This document shows, one piece after another, positions 1,000 through 64,000 of a stretch of DNA of 64,000 nucleotides. The notes beneath the pieces are model-generated. The model ran no database searches. It saw only the letters and a program-made list of their open reading frames with translations, and had not been told where the DNA came from. How positions within the stretch are numbered: the first letter of the stretch is position 1; the number at the start of each line of letters is the position of its first letter. The stretch lies in the NCBI GenBank assembly GCA_010405405.1, contig MU004230.1, positions 1,398,627 to 1,462,626 of the forward strand, given 5' to 3'. Made by a program: the position numbers and the translations under genes. This DNA is from Microthyrium microscopicum (lineage: Eukaryota).

Positions 1000-2590
1000 T
1001 TAATCTAAACTCCTTAAATTAGTTTAGTAGCGCTAAGATAGGACTAGCTTAATGTCTATTTAAATAATATTCTATTAATCCATAGATCTATAAGTCTAAG
1101 AATGTTGTTAGAAGAGCATATCCTAAAGGTGCTAAAGCTATTAAAGTTAATAAAGTTAAATAAATCTCTAGCATAGCTATAGGTAGTAAAATACTATATA
1201 AATCTATCTATATTATTAGCATATCTTTAAATCTATAATACTTACTAAATAATACTAATTCTTTACTAGTAGAGTTAATCTAGCACCCTTTATAATAGTA
1301 AGAATTATAAGAATAGCTAGAATCATAAGAATAGTAAGAATTATAGTATCTAGAGTTATTTAAGGAAGCCTACGACGTTAATAAGATAGCTCTTACGTAA
1401 ATACCCTATGGTAGAGCATATTTTAGCTAAAATCCTAACTTTAACTTTATAATAGGGTTATAGGCATAGGAATTAGGCTAAAGGACTAATTCTTAGTAAA
1501 TGCTATCGCTGTTACTATAGGATCTCTAGCCCTAACTATAATATAAGGATATACGCCAAAATAGTACTATACTACTATCTTTAGATTAGTTTATACTAAT
1601 ATCGCTATTATAGAGCTAGCTAGAGCCTTATTTACCCCTCTCTTTATAGTAAGTAGTTTCTACTATACTAGTACCTAAATTTCTTATTTTTATAACTCTA
1701 ATATCTTTATTACTAGTACCTTTAAGTAGGGGAAGGAAGTAGAACCTTAACTAGGGCTAGCTATTATTAATAATAGTATTATAGTATTATTTAGAGAAGA
1801 TTAATAGTTATAGTAGTATTAGTAGTAAAGTACTAATAGGATAGAAGACATAGTAGTAGTATAGTGTTTCTATCTTATTTAAGATAAAGAGAAATCTTAG
1901 TTAGGAATTAGGACTTGTAAGATTATCGTGTATAGTAGTAGTAGAGAGGGTAATTCTATAGCGAATAGTAGAGAGAGATAGTCCTTTAAGCTATAATATT
2001 CTATATAATAAGTTTTAATAGGCTCTTAATTAATTTAAACTTATGTAGACTTATTATAATAACGTTATTAAAGCTAAAAAGGATACCTCTAAAACTAAGA
2101 GGATATAGAAGGATAATAGTATAATAACTCGCGAGAATATTACTAAATAATACTTAGAGAAGGGCACCCTATTAATTAATATTCCTTTAGATAGCAATAG
2201 CGACGTTAAAGAATTATCTATAGAAACGTTAGCTAGAGTATAAGATATAATTAAATAGCCTAATCCTATAGGCTTAAGCGCTACCCCTTTAGTAATTCCT
2301 AGCTCTTTAACTTTAATAACTACTTAAGAATTAGGTTTACGTTTAAAGTATAAGAAGCTTAAATAATCTTATATACCTAAAGACGCTATTATAAGAATAT
2401 CTAATATAATTATTAAAGCTCTTAGAGACTATAATAAATAGTATAGTAGTATTACTAATAATTCTATAAGTAGTAGTAGTAGTAGTAGTAATAAAAGAAG
2501 TAAAGTTATAGGCCTAAGGGAAAAGGTAAATAGATTACACTTAGAGATAATAGAGATAAAGAAGTTATTAAAGGAGTCTTTAGGTTAATT
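1000..2590 (+). pseudogene. RIP-mutated second ORF of the Harbinger-type element; boundaries approximate
   Basis: The plus-strand frame around 2190-2588 still reads as protein with scattered stops (...KDAIIRISNIIIKALRDYNK*...SSSSSSS...GLREKVNRLHLEIIEIKKLLKESLG*). It is convergent with the transposase. Two ORFs are typical of this superfamily. Confidence 0.5.
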
Positions 2591-2709
2591 ATAGTTATAA
2601 AGGTTAGGCTAGTATTTCCTATATAAATTAGTAGTAAAGATAGAATCTAGTTTTTATAGAAATATTATAATAGATACTAAAAGCTTTAAAAGTATATAGA
2701 AGGGTTAAA

Positions 2710-4040
2710 TAATTAGCTAACCCTACCCTATTAATTCCCCTTCTTTAGTAAGAATATTTAACTTTACTTCATAACTTTAATATCTTTAATAAATATATAA
2801 CTATTCTATATTGTTTAAATCCTCTTATTAAAGCAATTCTAATAGTGTCTAGTTATTAAAGATACTACTAGGATTTAAATACTTATTAATTATTAGTAGT
2901 TTAATAGTAAATTAACTCTTAATAAGATTTCTCTACTATAAGGCCGTTTAATAGTTTTGAAGTAATACTAACATAGTTTAATAATAGATAATAGGCATTA
3001 AACTTATCCTTATATTATGTTAATAGTCTAACGTACCTTCCTACTAAGAGTTCTTTAATATTATAAATATCTACTTAATAGTAATATAGAATCTAGATTA
3101 TTTAAAGTTAAAATTCTACTACCAAAGTAGTAATTTAGTACCCTAGTATAGTAAAATAATTATATCGTTATATAGATATATAGCGTTGCTATATAATAGC
3201 TTTTTTGGACTATTACTAAATATTTGTTAAATCCTATCTTTAAGACCTAAGTCTATTAATATTAAGAGGTTATTTAAGGATCTAAAGTAGCTATAATTAA
3301 GTGCTAGCAATATCCTATTAGGTATAGTAATAGCTTATATTTTTATATAGTAGTTTTCTTTATAACTACTATAAAACTCCTACTATATTTAGTTACCCTT
3401 TAGTCTACTAATATTAATATAAGTTCTATTAATCTAGCCTTAAAATTTAGGTACTCTACTAGTATAATTAATAGCCTTAGTATATTATTTATATCTTGAC
3501 GCTATAAGGAGAGAATAGAACTATAATAGCGTCTCTATATATTTATTATATAAGTAAATTATTATAGCGTTAAAGTAGAACTTTATATATACTATACTTT
3601 GTCTAAAGTGCTAATAAATGTTAATATAGGTATAAATTTAAGTAAGTCTATAGTATACTATATAAAATAGGAAATGCTATTTATTTAGAGGTATAATTTA
3701 ATATAGTAAGGGGACGTTATTAAGATCTAGCTTCTTTGCTAATATTTATATTTTATGCTTCTTAAAACTATTATATACTAATTAATACTATAGGTATTAC
3801 TTTAAGCTAATTTAGTAGTATACTAATATTTAACTTTATATATCTAGCTAGATTTATCCTTAAGATTCTAATCATAGTAGTAGTACTTAATTATAGGCCT
3901 ATATTTACCTTCTTATTACTCTTCTTTTAGCAACTTATAAAGTAATATTACTAGAATACTAAGAGTAGCTATCTTAATATCGTCTTTAATAGTATCTATT
4001 TTAGGTTAGGATTAATAGAGATATGTTTAAGATACTATGG
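2710..4040 (-). pseudogene. RIP-mutated DDE (DDE_Tnp_4/Harbinger-like) transposase; boundaries approximate
   Basis: Minus-strand translation near 3445-3355 reads F*G*INRTYINISRLKGN*I**EFYSSYKK, which de-RIPs to FWGWIDGT..I.RP.....QQEFYSGHKK. Near 3200-3065 it reads LLYSNAIY...W**NFNFK*SRFYITIK*IF, which de-RIPs to LLYGDA.Y...QQ.FN...SR.RI.VE..F. These match the catalytic D..D..E motifs of Harbinger transposases. Confidence 0.75.
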
Positions 4041-50505: not shown

Positions 50506-50645
50506 AGAAGCTTTGCTCTTGTGTGGTTAAAATGTTAGAAGCGTGGTGTTGTAGACTTGGTACTTAGTCGTAATGTGATAATCACTCCTCTAGGAGGTTT
50601 AGGGACATTTTGCTCGATAATGTTTTGAACAAGAATTGCATTTCA

Positions 50646-53352
50646 TTATGCTATTGGTCGACTGAAATCTTGAAGCTCATCGTCCAAGTGCGCCACCACG
50701 TTGTCATATACAGCTTGCCGAAATGCATCGTCGTCCAAGTCGTAGTTACGGATTCGCGGATCCAAGTTACAGTATAAACAGCTTTTCACTACACTCTCAT
50801 ACCTCATACCTGCTTCCTCCATCAACAGTCCTGACTTGACGAGTCGAACTGCAGTCGTATAGTCTGCATAAAGTCCTTTGTTTCCAGCTTCTGCGATGTC
50901 TTCGGCTGTCCTGAGCTGCTTTATAGACTGCCCAAAGCAGATCTCGATCAAGGTAATACCGAGCGCAAAAAGTGTTGTATTATGAATAAACGACGGCTTG
51001 TTGGCTTCTATTGTTATTACTTCGCTGGACAGATCTCGAAGTACGAATAGTTGTTTGAATAGAGATGGTGCTTCCTTCCTGTCCAGAAGTGTTATATCGT
51101 GGCTTCCAAAGTAGGAACTAACCCAGGGCGATTTGTATAGATATAAAATGGCGTTTCCTAAAGCCGCAGACATGGAGAGCTTGTCTATCCGCCTTGGTGC
51201 TGGTGTGTTAGGGAACTTCCGTTGTAAAATATCATCGAAAGAGTATATTGATTCAGGCTTGGTAGCGTATGATCTGCAGAGAGAGATGTCAATTTCGATT
51301 GAACCGTCGGCGATGGACCCGATATAATTTGACGACTTGACTGCAAGTTGGTTTTCTTTGAACATGGCGCATATGCTCTGAATGGCGACCTTGGTCATTT
51401 GCTGCTGAGATATCACAACCGAGCTGTTATTTGAAGCCTGTGGCACAAGAGTGGAGGAACTGGATGATTTCTGTTTCAATCCGGGATGGGTTGTCCATTG
51501 AACCTTTTTCTTGACAGGCCGATTCGAAATTTGAGTTGGGTTTTGAGCTCCCGTTGTGGCTTGTTGCTCAACAGGTCGGATTCTACATGTAGTTTCTGTC
51601 CACATGCCTAGGAAAATGTCAGTATGAGACGCGAAACAGTGTTTTCAGAGCCAAGACGAGCTGAAAGGATCGCATGATCTTTTTGGTAAGATATTCCATC
51701 GTATGTGATGGGCGCCATCGAATGCGATGGGAGCCACTGCGTGCTTTGGTATTGACAGATATTGTGAAGACATAGATAAAAACCATATCGTCAACGCCGT
51801 CACCAGAAAAGCCGACTTGGTCTACCTACTCATGGTGATCCTCCATCGCACTCCATGGTAGCCATCGAATCCAATGGCGGCCATCGAGTGCTATGGGAGC
51901 CATCAGATGTGATGGGAGTTGTCAAGAACTAGAAAAACGTGGATCGGTCGCTAAGGGGGCCTTACCGGGTGCCTTCTGGTGTGATATAAACGCAATCTTT
52001 AACGAGTTGTCCGAGTCAGTTGTGTCTTCTTGATATCGACAGAGCTGGAGAGCAACCATGTGTTTGTCGACACCGCAGGTGCATTGCATCGCTTTGACAG
52101 CACGATACAGGCTTTGCGCATAATTTCGAAGGCCCTTAAATCGATCGCCCTGTGATCTCTTCCGGCGAGAGCTCTGTAAAACGGATGTCTGCCTCGTCAA
52201 CCCCTGAAGAGCTCTGTTGTGTTCTCGCAATCGCTGTACCAGTTCTTCATAAGAACTCTTGCTCAGACTGAATCGACCTAGAAATAGTCAGTGCGGTTAC
52301 GAAGTCGCATCAGTCAGATCATATTTTCCACTGATGGTAAAATTGTAAAACCATTCTACGGGAGCCGGCGAGAGCGATAGAAATATCTCTCCAGATCAAT
52401 ACCTATTTTGATAAATCCAGGCGAGTTCAAGATACCTCTAGACATTCGAAAGACTCATATGGGGACCATCGCTTTCGATGGCTCCTATAGAGCGTGTTTC
52501 TGATAGACTGATATGGTTACCATAATGAATTGGTAGCCAGTGAATGGTGTGTTGTAACATAAACGTATGCTGTCAGTAAAAATGTTGGCTTACCTATCTT
52601 CCAAGCTTTTTTGAAGCTCATATCAGGTGTTGTCATCCAGAGAATTGCTCCATCGTCATCTAGATCAAGTTTATCTTTAAACTCGTTCACGGCATCTTCC
52701 ATGGCACATATTCGTTCCAGATACACCTTGTAGGCAAGAGCCAACCGCTTTTCGAGCTTATTTTGAATAATAGGATCATCCCAAGCATCACCTAACGGTT
52801 ATCAGATTGTTCCACATCACGTTTTGTGATTGAGCTGGACTTACCTCCTGGCGCGGCAAGCATTATTTCCATCTCCTTGGAGCTAGCGATGCCATCGAGC
52901 AGCATCTCACAAGTATTGCGATACGTGATGCTTTCTGTTTCCAGTTCCAGAATCAGAGTTTTGAGTTCCCATTTGTAAGTCAGCATGCGTCGAACTGTAC
53001 GCACCCCATCGGCATAGTGCTCCAACGCTGAGATCACCAATGGAATGCCTGACATCGTTAGTTTAGACTCTCCAGATCGATGAGTAGACGAAATAGTTGG
53101 CAGCTCCCATCAAACACGTTGTCTACCATCGCACTCCATAAAGAGAAGCAAATGTGACCAGCGTATCCCCGAAGAAGATATTGAGCAGTCCGTGTGAAGT
53201 GTATCAAGGGTAGACAATGCACCTCAAGGAGCGTTTCAGTCAGATTTCGACCCGGTATGATAGGTAACAAGCAGAAATAGAAATGACCAGAAGTGTAAGA
53301 TAGATGGCGCCTTACTTCCTAAAACGGCACCTGCCACCTCAAGACCGGACAT
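50646..53352 (-). CDS. Hypothetical protein with a HeLo-like N-terminus and a degenerate kinase-like C-terminal domain; introns 53049-53315, 52792-52844, 52278-52593, 51608-51965
   Basis: All four introns have GTAAG donors, branch-point-like motifs and YAG acceptors, and they join in frame. Spliced product: MSGLEVAGAVLGSIPLVISALEHYADGV...APGGDAWDDPIIQNKLEKRL...KIGRFSLSKSSYEELVQRLREHN...APGMWTET...LGNAILYLYKSPWV...LFALGITLIEI...YESVVKSCLYC. Confidence 0.8.
51696..51918. repeat. Intronic tandem arrays of a 19-bp palindromic unit, CCATCG-N4-CGATGG-N3
   Basis: Two units at 51696-51733 and four units at 51843-51918, each with exact 19-bp period. Further copies lie at 52466-52484 and 53107-53141. 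Confidence 0.8.
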
Positions 53353-53763
53353 ATTTCGTAATATTCACTAAGAAGTTGAGTTTGAAAGAGTATATGACAA
53401 AAGACTGGTGGCGGAACACAATCTGGCGTGATCAGCTCAGCGTTGGCGTTCTCAGACTACAAAGCCGAAAATGACAGTATAATAGCCAGTCCTTTGATGG
53501 TAGTTTTGGACAACATACAACAGACAGATTCAAAATATAGGAAGTCTTTGGGAAGCTTTGCAGCAATACGAAAAGGAGGCGGGATACAAGACTCCAGGAA
53601 TAGAAATACCCCTCAGTGATATGCATGAAGGCGTATCAAAATGAGGCTGACCGGTCACAAACCCAAAACCCCGTTACATAACCTGAGTACAAGAGCAGTA
53701 ACTCGGAAACGTCGATTGCTCACTGCCAAAATCCAGGAACTCAGGATCAACCCTCTTTCAACC

Positions 53764-56700: not shown

Positions 56701-58181
56701 CGTCTGGCTGCCGCTGCCATTGCAGGTGCTAGTGCTGCTGCTTTTGCCGCTGGGCGCCAGAAACAAGCGGACCTCCCACTTCAATCAAATATTGGGCCAC
56801 CATCTTCTAAGATGCTTCGAATGCTACCTGGTTCCCAAACGACTCCGTCTAACCCCCATGTTGGTGGTGAGGAATTACTAGGGAAAGCAGATGATCCTTA
56901 CCCCAGAGACCAGCGCAGACGCACTGTTGAAATTGGAGACACGACTTGGGGCGGCGGCCCTCCAACAGCTGTTGCACTCGACCGATATAATGATCGTATT
57001 CGCGCAGAAGAAATGAAGCAACAGGAAGCCGCCGTCAGCAGTTCTACCGAGCTGGAGGCTGGTCAAGAACAGCCGACTCAGAACTCGAGACGTAGGTCCC
57101 AAGATTCAAATGATGAGGCATATTCGTTCACGAATCCGTTGGAGATGTATCGAGATACGGAGCCGCGTGGCCCTCGACATAAAAGCAGCCGCTTAACTGT
57201 AGATGACGATTCGGTTGATCCACTTGACCTAACACTTTTACCACGATCACCTGATATCTCACCACCCAGAAGGATGTTGGAACACCGTGTCACTAGAGCT
57301 AAGGCTCCAAAACGACAAGCGTACTACGAGTATGACCGGATTCAACAAGAACCGGTGCCTGTTAGCGATACAGTGCATCGGTATCGATGCTTAGAAGACT
57401 GGGATTGCAAGAAAGGGGCCAAAGGATTTTCTCGGTACAATGACTTGAAGCGGCATGTGATGCGGGTTCACAGCAAGACATCGCAGGAGTTTGAGCAATT
57501 ATTTCCCAGAACAGGGCAGGTCAACGTCTTGCAACTCAGTCAAACACATCGGTACTCAATTTCTGGCGATAAAGCGGACAGTATTGAACCTTCGTCTCCA
57601 AACCCTAACGTAACGCGCCCGACTGGCCACGGAGAACCAAACGAGGATGATGCTCCTAGAATGTACCCCGGCATGGGCCGTGAAGCCGCGCAAGCTGCTT
57701 CAACTGGAAGACCTCGCTTGCAAAGTTACCCAGATAATGCTCTAAGGCTAGAAGGAGGAGGAGGTTCTTCAATTCCTATAGAGCGTGAGCGTACGCCTTA
57801 TGATCCTATAGAGCGTGAGCGTAAGCCTTATGTTCCTATTGAACGTGAGCGTAAGCCATATACAGTTGTTCAGGGCAGCGCAAAGTTATACGAGGATGCA
57901 GTGTTGCAACCATTATCCAATACACCCGGACGGCCACCACGGCGTCGTGAAGCACATACAGCTATGCCGTGCGTAAACTGTACGAGAGCCAAACTAAGCT
58001 GTGATGAAGCGAGGCCATGTAAGCATTGTGTATCTACTCATCAAGAGGCAAGTCTAGTCGTGTTTGAGGTCAAGGGTAACACTAACTTCATGAATAGGCA
58101 ACATGCGTTGACATAGAGCACAAGAAGCGTGGCCGACCAAGAATACAACCCAAGCCAGAAGTCAGAGTCGAGGATTTCTGA
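53764..58181 (+). CDS. Large mosaic protein: helical N-terminal domain, C2H2 fingers, ubiquitin-like domain, further fragments, C-terminal Zn2Cys6; introns 54651-54738, 55325-55385, 55606-55855, 58048-58097 (GC-AG)
   Basis: Exons join in frame. Segments in order: FKIWMNNIGA..SLDHRLRDA; FECPYCF..WK|RHVFTDLQPHLC; PITFKDAVGRKFSFPWHLCKSWK|GMEQLV; ARWTKIDRTLVNPEAL; YRC..C..GFSRYNDLKRHVMRVH; PCVNCTRAKLSCDEARPCKHC..|ATCVDIEHKKRGRPR. Confidence 0.75.
57775..57864 (+). repeat. Coding 30-bp tandem repeat, 3 copies (PIERER[T/K]PY[D/V/T])
   Basis: CCTATAGAGCGTGAGCGTAAGCCTTATG-like units start at 57775, 57805 and 57835. Confidence 0.9.
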
Positions 58182-62407: not shown

Positions 62408-64000
62408 CTCTACATGGGAAGATCTGCTAGCGAAATCCATTTCGAGCACCAGAAATATCTGTGTTCAACTCCATATCCTGCACATGCAAGCCAGTTCGCT
62501 CAGGCTAGACAAAACCATATCGAGCAACAGAAATTTCTGCTTTTAAATGCTCACCTTCAACAAAAAAGCCAATCCGATTCACATCCCACCAAGTGATTCG
62601 GTTCGACTGGAAGACCCCAACTTCACCTCTTTGTAAGGCCTGGTATGCTATGCTTGCCGGAGTTTTTGCCAAGTCTTTCGGTTCTTTGTTCAATCGAAGG
62701 ATGTCCTATTTGCAGACGGAGTTTTTGCGATATCTGGGGTCTCTTTATCTCTTCATCAAGCTAAGGCGTTTACGAGTTTTTGCTATTGGATGTCTTCCAC
62801 CTAGGCTCTTTCGGAGTTTCTTAACCCTTGGGTTGTATCATTGCTCCCTTTTGTTCAATTTATCCTGGATTTTTTTTGGGAGCTGTATCTTCTCCCGGAC
62901 TCTTTCACTTATCATTGGAGAGGTCGAAAAAACCTACATCACTATTACCCAAACTACTATCCAAGCAATTTTACTGCTGTACGTACGAGAGGGACAGGCA
63001 GAAGGATCGTTCAGGTTCAGGCTTTTATTCAGGAATGCCTCCGTTTTTTTCGGTGCATAGCTGGCGTGGGGGAATAGAATTTAGCATTAATTGCAAAGTT
63101 CCCTTGAAAACATAATAACTGTATTTTGTCTTTCATTCGTGCTGTTATGGCGGATTGTCACTGCGATCTCCATCATCTGTTGACCAACATGAAGTCTGTG
63201 TAGACTTTGTACATCGAGTACGGCCATATCCATATGATTGAAAGTACGACATTACTATCGAATACTCCCGAATTGCATAAGATAGCCAACGGCATGGCAA
63301 AATTAATGACCTTCTCCCATCAACTCTGATGCCTACCACCAACGCTCTTAAGCAAAAGGTGCTCCCATTAGGCCAACGAGGTTGATGGGAGCGCGCCAGT
63401 TATTTTGCCGACCTGTTGATAGCTCCAACCACACACTCGGCTGGGTACTTGAATCGGGTTAAACCTTTCAAATGTTCAAATGTTGCCCGTGGTCTTCGGG
63501 ATTTCGGTGTGGATAATCGGCAACACTCTGTTTTCAGCTTTGCAATGCGCTGAGGCCGGTGGTATCAAACTTTAGGACCTAAAATTGGCTTTGTTTCAAG
63601 GCAGCCAGACTTGTAGCCTGTAACATTCTGAAAATTTCCATGTTTGCCAATTCACCGGTCACCGAGGATCAGAGATTTTTCGCTCGCACTAATTCGATGT
63701 TGCGGATTATTATTTTGGGCTTACATGTAGCTTCAGCCTGATGAGATAAAAAGACACCGGCCACGTACTGATGCAGCTTAGAAGGGAATGCTAGAAGGGG
63801 CGAGATAAGCGTATCATGAGCACTGCATTTGGACAAGTACATTTCATGTGTTTCTTGTCGCTTTCTTGGATTGTGTGGTGCAACATGTGGAGGCAAACCA
63901 CGCGTGGTAGGCGGAGGCGAGGCTGAGGTGCACCAAGGCGAATGATGGAAGTGGCTTCTTTGGTTGATCCCCTGGTCTTGCGGACCAAGGGATTACCAGG

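Follow-up and report, generated by a model that had tools for sequence, protein, structure and literature searches.

The sequence considered here is a stretch of 64,000 nucleotides from contig MU004230.1 of Microthyrium microscopicum (GenBank assembly GCA_010405405.1, positions 1,398,627 to 1,462,626 of the forward strand), which is referred to as the window and whose first letter is position 1 of all coordinates given below. Its minus strand encodes a gene of five exons (53316–53352, 52845–53048, 52594–52791, 51966–52277, and 50646–51607), and within this gene the region 51608–53315 contains three long introns of 267, 316, and 358 nt, all of which harbor copies of a 19-bp palindromic unit. 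The motif is genuinely present in all three introns, greatly in excess of chance expectation, and related copies are present at some twenty further loci of the genome.

Host gene and predicted product

The region 50600–53400 was compared with contig sets from four of seven public runs, designated X2 (a DNA run from which the present sequence may derive), X5, X6, and X7. The labelling of X5 as RNA is a guess, and the set was treated as RNA because its contigs show exact GT..AG joints. All X5 contigs of the gene (records 9–15) are identical to the window across the exons, with 0 differences. The first exon (53316–53352) carries the ATG, and its translation, MSGLEVAGAVLG, agrees with the annotated protein P0001 (550 aa). 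Exons 2 (52845–53048) and 3 (52594–52791) follow from the translation and from one X5 contig (record 13), exon 4 (51966–52277) from the translation and from an X5 contig that is gapless over 51965–52280 (record 11), and the last exon (50646–51607), which includes the stop codon, is covered by an X5 contig spanning 50600–51606 (record 9). P0001 has the same four introns and, in addition, a 60-nt intron in exon 4, so that 20 residues encoded at about 51997–52056 of the minus strand (VALQLCRYQEDTTDSDNSLK) are absent from it, but these are kept in the present gene model; record 11, being gapless over 51965–52280, contains no such splice.

When the whole protein was compared with Pfam at E values up to 1, DUF7580 was the sole domain detected (PF24476, E 2e-19, encoded by the last exon), and no HeLo-type domain was found at the N-terminus at the same threshold. 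An Atlas feature search, which is based on a language model, placed residues 1–225 near HeLo clusters (0.94, 178 shared features), a result to be taken as a lead and not as membership. This proximity to the HeLo (prion-inhibition and propagation) cluster, seen without a Pfam match, concerns the N-terminus encoded by exons 1–3 (53316–52594, minus strand). The predicted product may therefore combine a HeLo-like N-terminus with a DUF7580 domain, an arrangement which we take to resemble the killing-domain-plus-kinase-like layout of necroptosis-type proteins; the idea of a toxic gene is backed solely by the language-model lead. A homologue search with the last exon gave no match in the "longer" mode and, in the "near" mode, five proteins, namely P0001 itself (100%) and four proteins of 29–32% identity. 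Within the same exon, 42 nt at 51537–51578 are matched with 3 differences by a contig of X2 that is 1462 nt long and has a depth of 312; it may represent a paralogue fragment or a repeat.

Introns and splicing

All four introns are GT..AG introns (CT..AC on the forward strand) and appear as exact joints in X5: the 358-nt intron (51608–51965) as the joint 51606->51965 (cut +1, depth 913), the 316-nt intron (52278–52593) as 52275->52592 (cut +2, depth 513), the 53-nt intron (52792–52844) as 52789->52843 (cut +2, side 196), and the 267-nt intron (53049–53315) as 53047->53315 (cut +1, depth 881), all on the minus strand. The lengths reported for them in a preliminary description made from the sequence alone are confirmed by these joints and by the agreement with P0001, and the question raised there of whether the intervals are spliced at all is answered by the RNA-like contigs, in which all four introns are removed. 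The three long introns are five to seven times as long as the 53-nt intron of the same gene. Contigs retaining an intron are shallow relative to their spliced counterparts, with a depth of 3.6 for the 358-nt intron vs 913 for the exon contig and of 99.7 for the 267-nt intron (record 14) vs 881 for the spliced joint. The array-bearing intervals have thus been shown to be genuine spliceosomal introns, and the repeat copies are removed with them.

The 316-nt intron is subject to an alternative splice, in which its donor is joined to an upstream acceptor and an intron of 86 nt (52508–52593, minus strand) is excised; the corresponding X5 joint, 52507->52594 (CT..AC), is found in record 12. In this case 230 nt of the intron, including the repeat unit at 52466, stay in the RNA, and translation reaches a stop at codon 154. 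As judged from the reading frame, this unproductive splice would truncate the protein just past its HeLo-like N-terminal part. The depth of the 86-nt joint is 434.6 as compared to 513 for the productive 316-nt joint, contig depths being a rough measure of isoforms.

The sets X6 and X7, which carry a different organism code, contain pieces identical to the window at 51611–51823, 51952–52170, 52120–52316, and 53084–53286 with a depth of 2–5; because of this identity, the same fungus is probably present there at a low level.

The 19-bp palindromic unit

The unit has the form CCATCG-N4-CGATGG-N3 with a period of 19 and a consensus of about GAG-CCATCG-AATG-CGATGG, and it was located at 51696, 51715, 51843, 51862, 51881, 51900, and 52466. 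Two arrays, 90 nt apart and with a short left flank in common, lie in the 358-nt intron. Array A (51696–51752) consists of two clear units and a decayed one, whereas array B (51843–51918) comprises four units; both were recognized by the pattern and by Tandem Repeats Finder (TRF). The 316-nt intron contains a single perfect unit, CCATCGCTTTCGATGG, with its spacer at 52466–52484 (profile match 52465–52492, E 0.0022, minus orientation), and the 267-nt intron contains two units at 53105–53144 (profile match 53105–53136, E 0.035). The latter had been placed at 53107–53141 in the preliminary description; they are present, yet far more decayed than was implied there. The remaining units quoted in it were found at their places by sequence search, as was the 14-mer CCATCGCACTCCAT, which blastn showed to be identical at 51843–51856 and 53126, that is, in the 358- and 267-nt introns.

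The statistical evidence for the motif comes from several searches of the 64-kb window. With up to 2 mismatches, CCATCGNNNNCGATGG has 12 matches vs 1.75 expected (standard deviation 1.51), a number reached in 0 of 100 shuffles, and 7 of the 12 lie in the introns of this gene. The pattern CCAT-N8-ATGG has 8 matches, all but one of them in these introns (7/8), and the hexamer CCATCG occurs 26 times, with 10 occurrences within 51608–53315, where 0.7 would be expected by length. Arrays of period 19 were detected by TRF only at 51696–51736 and 51843–51904 (2.2 and 3.3 copies, respectively). A two-unit profile built from the 358-nt intron alone yielded independent matches with E < 0.8 only in the other two long introns. 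Neither pattern nor profile searches revealed the motif in the 53-nt intron, and the earlier statements that this intron is motif-free and that clear arrays are missing elsewhere in the window both hold, the period-19 arrays of TRF and the profile matches with E < 0.8 being confined to the long introns.

Some further repetitive stretches of the window were considered. An apparently intergenic segment at 63314–63405 includes a weak unit-like stretch (CTCCCATCAACTCTGATG, CCAACGAGGTTGATGGGAG) that may be a very decayed array; with E values of 0.4–0.6 in blastn and 16 with the profile, it was not counted as a further copy. A 30-bp tandem of 2.9 copies with 91% matches at 57774–57861 encodes a ten-residue repeat (IPIERERKPY-like), with a Zn-cluster-like stretch rich in cysteine following closely downstream; the tandem has a 14-mer in common with the 316-nt intron, which was judged to be chance, because the repeat there is coding. 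The block 2001–4000 is AT-rich (GC 0.233 vs about 0.47 elsewhere), contains many short AT-rich tandem repeats, and has the look of a repeat degraded by repeat-induced point mutation.

Dispersal in the genome

In X2, 23 contigs map to the region 50600–53400, one being the locus itself and 22 being partial matches; here, only copies at least 80% alike were counted. Among the seven pieces listed for these 22 contigs, six fall on arrays, with a likeness of 80–90% and 5–9 differences. The array-matching pieces cover 51694–51736 of array A, 51843–51896 and 51864–51914 (together 51843–51914) of array B, and 53104–53147 in the 267-nt intron, and their depths of about 955–1068 correspond to the single-copy level, the locus itself having 1031. 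The extra depth of X2 is located almost wholly in bins overlapping the arrays, a small excess in the bins 51446–51633 being tied to the seventh piece, at 51537–51578 in the last exon. The excess depth is estimated to correspond to about 10 contigs for array A and 8 for array B, with 1 for the unit of the 316-nt intron and 3 for the units of the 267-nt intron. Since almost all of the extra depth is over arrays, the repeat is dispersed in the genome, while the remainder of each intron is unique. Joints in X2 of the types "goes back 41" and "opposite strands", together with a loose end of further 19-nt units in X5, reveal longer or inverted arrays elsewhere.

Other loci are 86–88% alike to array A, whereas arrays A and B of the 358-nt intron are only 72–80% alike to each other. 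Array A is thus closer to copies elsewhere than to its neighbor, which is a family-like pattern and not that of a recent duplication within the gene. The 19-bp unit is a low-copy dispersed repeat family with short arrays at several loci, that is, a minisatellite.

Copies from other loci are also found in X5, where 11 of the 20 contigs matching the region stem from elsewhere. The summed depth over 51858–51876 amounts to about 3200–3700, well above that of the exons of the gene; given these deep array-bearing contigs, at least one other copy seems to be part of an abundant RNA, an argument against restriction of the family to introns that are removed efficiently. The remnant of a small intron-targeting mobile element was one of three options offered in the preliminary description, besides arrays of tetraloop RNA hairpins and binding sites for dimeric proteins. 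Of these, a repeat or mobile relic fits best in view of the matches to other genomic contigs; a targeting of introns is putative, and array-bearing RNA contigs far deeper than the exons are present. As regards binding sites for dimeric proteins, the evidence points neither way.

The flanks of the other copies gave a consensus with an agreement of 0.58–0.73, close to that of unrelated sequences, and no larger shared element can be inferred from them. A metagenome scan with the two-unit pattern returned three loci, none of them fungal-looking: two are identical, GC-rich, chance-like matches and one is an unrelated two-copy tandem; all were rejected. A literature search, with subscription papers partly outside its scope, retrieved no description of the 19-bp repeat or of introners in M. 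microscopicum.

Structure, orientation, and ends of the repeat copies

For an analysis of pairing, ten units were aligned in the RNA sense, a number that gives the comparison low power. Conservation is limited to CCAT and CGATGG; variation is seen at the inner positions bearing CpG and in the center, and the loops show no consensus. Paired cells account for 86.7% as compared to 84.7% after shuffling, a value at least as high being obtained in 81 of 500 shuffles, and one of 60 cells is compensatory, owing to a double change in the unit at 51900. Within these ten units, pairing maintained by covariation, as in a conserved RNA hairpin, was not detected beyond the level of the shuffles, and the tetraloop hairpins proposed earlier find no backing other than the inherited palindrome. 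A search of 51400–53500 with the Rfam covariance models at E values up to 5 gave 0 matches, and an intronic snoRNA was dropped as a candidate on this basis. Folding of the entire introns gave z values of −3.55 for the 358-nt, −1.90 for the 316-nt, and −0.15 for the 267-nt intron, which corresponds to a stable predicted structure in one of the three. The units range from perfect to barely recognizable; this wide range of decay, along with pairing no better than in shuffles, fits neutral decay. We therefore read the units as a decaying, inherited palindrome and not as a maintained hairpin, with the proviso that ten units give little power.

The single unit of the 316-nt intron has a decayed inverted partner with flank at 52355–52378; these 24 nt are 79% complementary to 52468–52491 at a distance of 89 nt, and the two are paired in the minimum-free-energy fold. 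As for features of a miniature inverted-repeat transposable element (MITE), this intron thus shows an inverted pair but no target-site duplication (TSD), and about one other contig matches there. A repeat search of each long intron with its flanks disclosed neither an inverted pair at the intron ends nor a flanking direct repeat.

In the 316- and 267-nt introns, the profile matches the units in reverse orientation relative to those of the 358-nt intron. Such mixed orientation favors entry at the DNA level, because copying through spliced RNA keeps the orientation. When the three long introns were aligned with each other, as had been proposed in the preliminary description, no similarity beyond the units was found by short-word blastn or by MAFFT in both relative orientations.

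Origin and possible role of the repeat

On balance, we consider it probable that the 19-bp unit is a dispersed palindromic minisatellite, which is carried in genuine introns and removed along with them, and that it likely represents what remains of a small mobile element of the foldback type. This element was probably non-autonomous, and the repeat is most likely passenger DNA rather than a special splicing signal. The repeat would have entered existing introns or other tolerated non-coding DNA as DNA and in either orientation, together with flanking material that is now unrecognizable and that would account for the length of the introns. The four arrays within 1.7 kb would have arisen by local spread, either through reinsertion close by or through recombination among neighboring copies, the gene being tolerant of them. 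Self-pairing of an array would fold part of the long intron and may help a spliceosome used to short introns to handle introns of 300 nt.

Several observations weigh against this explanation. For none of the copies in these introns was a TSD or a terminal inverted repeat (TIR) found, and mobility is therefore putative. The clustering of four arrays in 1.7 kb is extreme in comparison with the fungal genome as a whole, in which about 21 further contigs match; random insertion fails to explain it, and a function or an origin within the gene could be responsible. The occurrence in the 316-nt intron of an unproductive splice of similar contig depth would suit a regulatory role. Finally, the repeat family could be larger than observed, because of the 80% limit set on the copies counted.

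The unexplained clustering keeps three other explanations alive. The long introns might be old, degenerated introner-like elements (ILEs), where a repeat-bearing element created the introns and its palindromic part is still recognizable. This we regard as unlikely, even though ILEs were described from the class to which the host belongs, the Dothideomycetes (PMC3609843), and although ILEs are longer than regular introns, structured, and quick to degenerate, which is reminiscent of the five- to sevenfold length and the one fold z of −3.55 reported here. The introns are neither near-identical to one another nor similar to other genomic contigs beyond the arrays, the orientation of the arrays is opposite in two of the three, the distances from array to splice site differ, the junctions are devoid of TIR and TSD, and some copies, to judge from the high-depth array-bearing RNA contigs, may escape splicing. 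Two homologues, P0002 and P0003 (about 30% identical), show no alignment gap where the 358-nt intron is located; from a comparison of proteins alone, nothing firm follows. A copying of a repeat-bearing intron within the gene, or an exchange of sequence between nearby introns by gene conversion, would fit the presence of every copy in the window in a single gene and the identity of the 14-mer in the 358- and 267-nt introns, and duplication of an intron within the same gene has been documented for fungi (PMC3609843). Nevertheless, such an origin appears distinctly improbable, as the introns have nothing in common apart from the units, two of them carry these in the opposite orientation, and array A is matched more closely at other genomic loci than by array B.

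The arrays could also be functional cis-elements, either hairpins in the pre-mRNA or DNA sites for a dimeric protein, which tune splicing or expression, for example the choice between the 316- and the 86-nt intron. The presence of four arrays in one gene, the constant arms with variable centers, the compensatory double change in the unit at 51900, and the 24-nt inverted pair of the 316-nt intron, which could hide or expose splice signals, would all be in accord with such a role, as would the 86-nt splice with its retained unit, its stop at codon 154, and its depth of 434.6 vs 513. Yet nothing ties this splice to the repeat, contig depths are a poor gauge of isoform levels, pairing is no better than in shuffles (81/500 as high), and no Rfam match or known motif was identified. 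Moreover, the units of the 267-nt intron are nearly gone (fold z −0.15), and the 358-nt intron, the richest in units, is removed almost fully (3.6 vs 913), so that we also hold a cis-acting function to be unlikely. A more far-reaching proposal is that the unit itself is a mobile module, a eukaryotic counterpart of palindromes of the bacterial REP/BIME type (repetitive extragenic palindromes and bacterial interspersed mosaic elements), which would spread in the form of hairpin arrays alone, with no larger element around them, favor transcribed non-coding DNA, reinsert locally, and seed or lengthen introns in a HeLo-like cell-death gene, where its hairpins would sway the balance between productive and truncating splicing; we consider this a long shot.

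Comparison with known systems

If the repeat is a dispersed minisatellite relic, a species-specific short repeat lodged in introns is in itself ordinary, and what the locus illustrates is that passenger repeats can bring fungal introns to five to seven times the usual length with splicing unharmed. Should the arrays mark lineage-specific introns, they would represent a new type of introner in the class in which ILEs were found, and their importance would likewise be greater if they controlled unproductive splicing in what is a putative cell-death gene. Foldback elements and the REP/BIME units of bacteria consist of arrays of short palindromic or inverted sub-repeats dispersed in non-coding DNA. 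Neither a transposase nor defined ends are seen in the present repeat, whose mobility is putative, and REP/BIME units are bacterial, so that the comparison is one of analogy only.

The ILEs of Dothideomycetes were reportedly treated by van der Burgt and coworkers in 2012. They are whole introns that are near-identical across many genes, about twice as long as regular introns, and structured (Collemare et al. 2013, PMC3609843). The introns described here resemble them in the fungal class, in their length, in canonical signals and splicing, in one stable predicted fold, and in a sequence repeated between introns. Whereas ILEs occur in tens to hundreds of copies that are near-identical from end to end, the present introns have only the 19-bp units in common, in variable orientation, and are otherwise unique.

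Introners derived from DNA transposons are marked by TSDs and TIRs where intron and exon meet, and one of the splice sites is contributed by the element (Huff et al. 2016, via PMC11282704). Like these and MITE-derived introns, the present arrays are short, non-coding, repeated, intronic, and of inverted symmetry, but no TIR or TSD was found at the junctions examined here. The symmetrical sister (stw)introns of the Hypoxylaceae possess terminal inverted repeats of 45–55 nt and are highly similar over their full length (PMC8469720). They have in common with the present introns a strong internal symmetry and the lack of flanking duplications, but here the symmetry is that of internal 16-bp palindromes.

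Repetitive elements inside regular introns have been noted in Rhytidhysteron, Fusarium graminearum, and Sclerotinia (PMC3609843). The paper gives no detail on them, and the present case involves a very short palindromic tandem unit in three introns of one gene. In both situations a repeat occurring throughout the genome makes ordinary introns look related, and among the systems compared, this is the closest description of the introns of M. microscopicum reported here.

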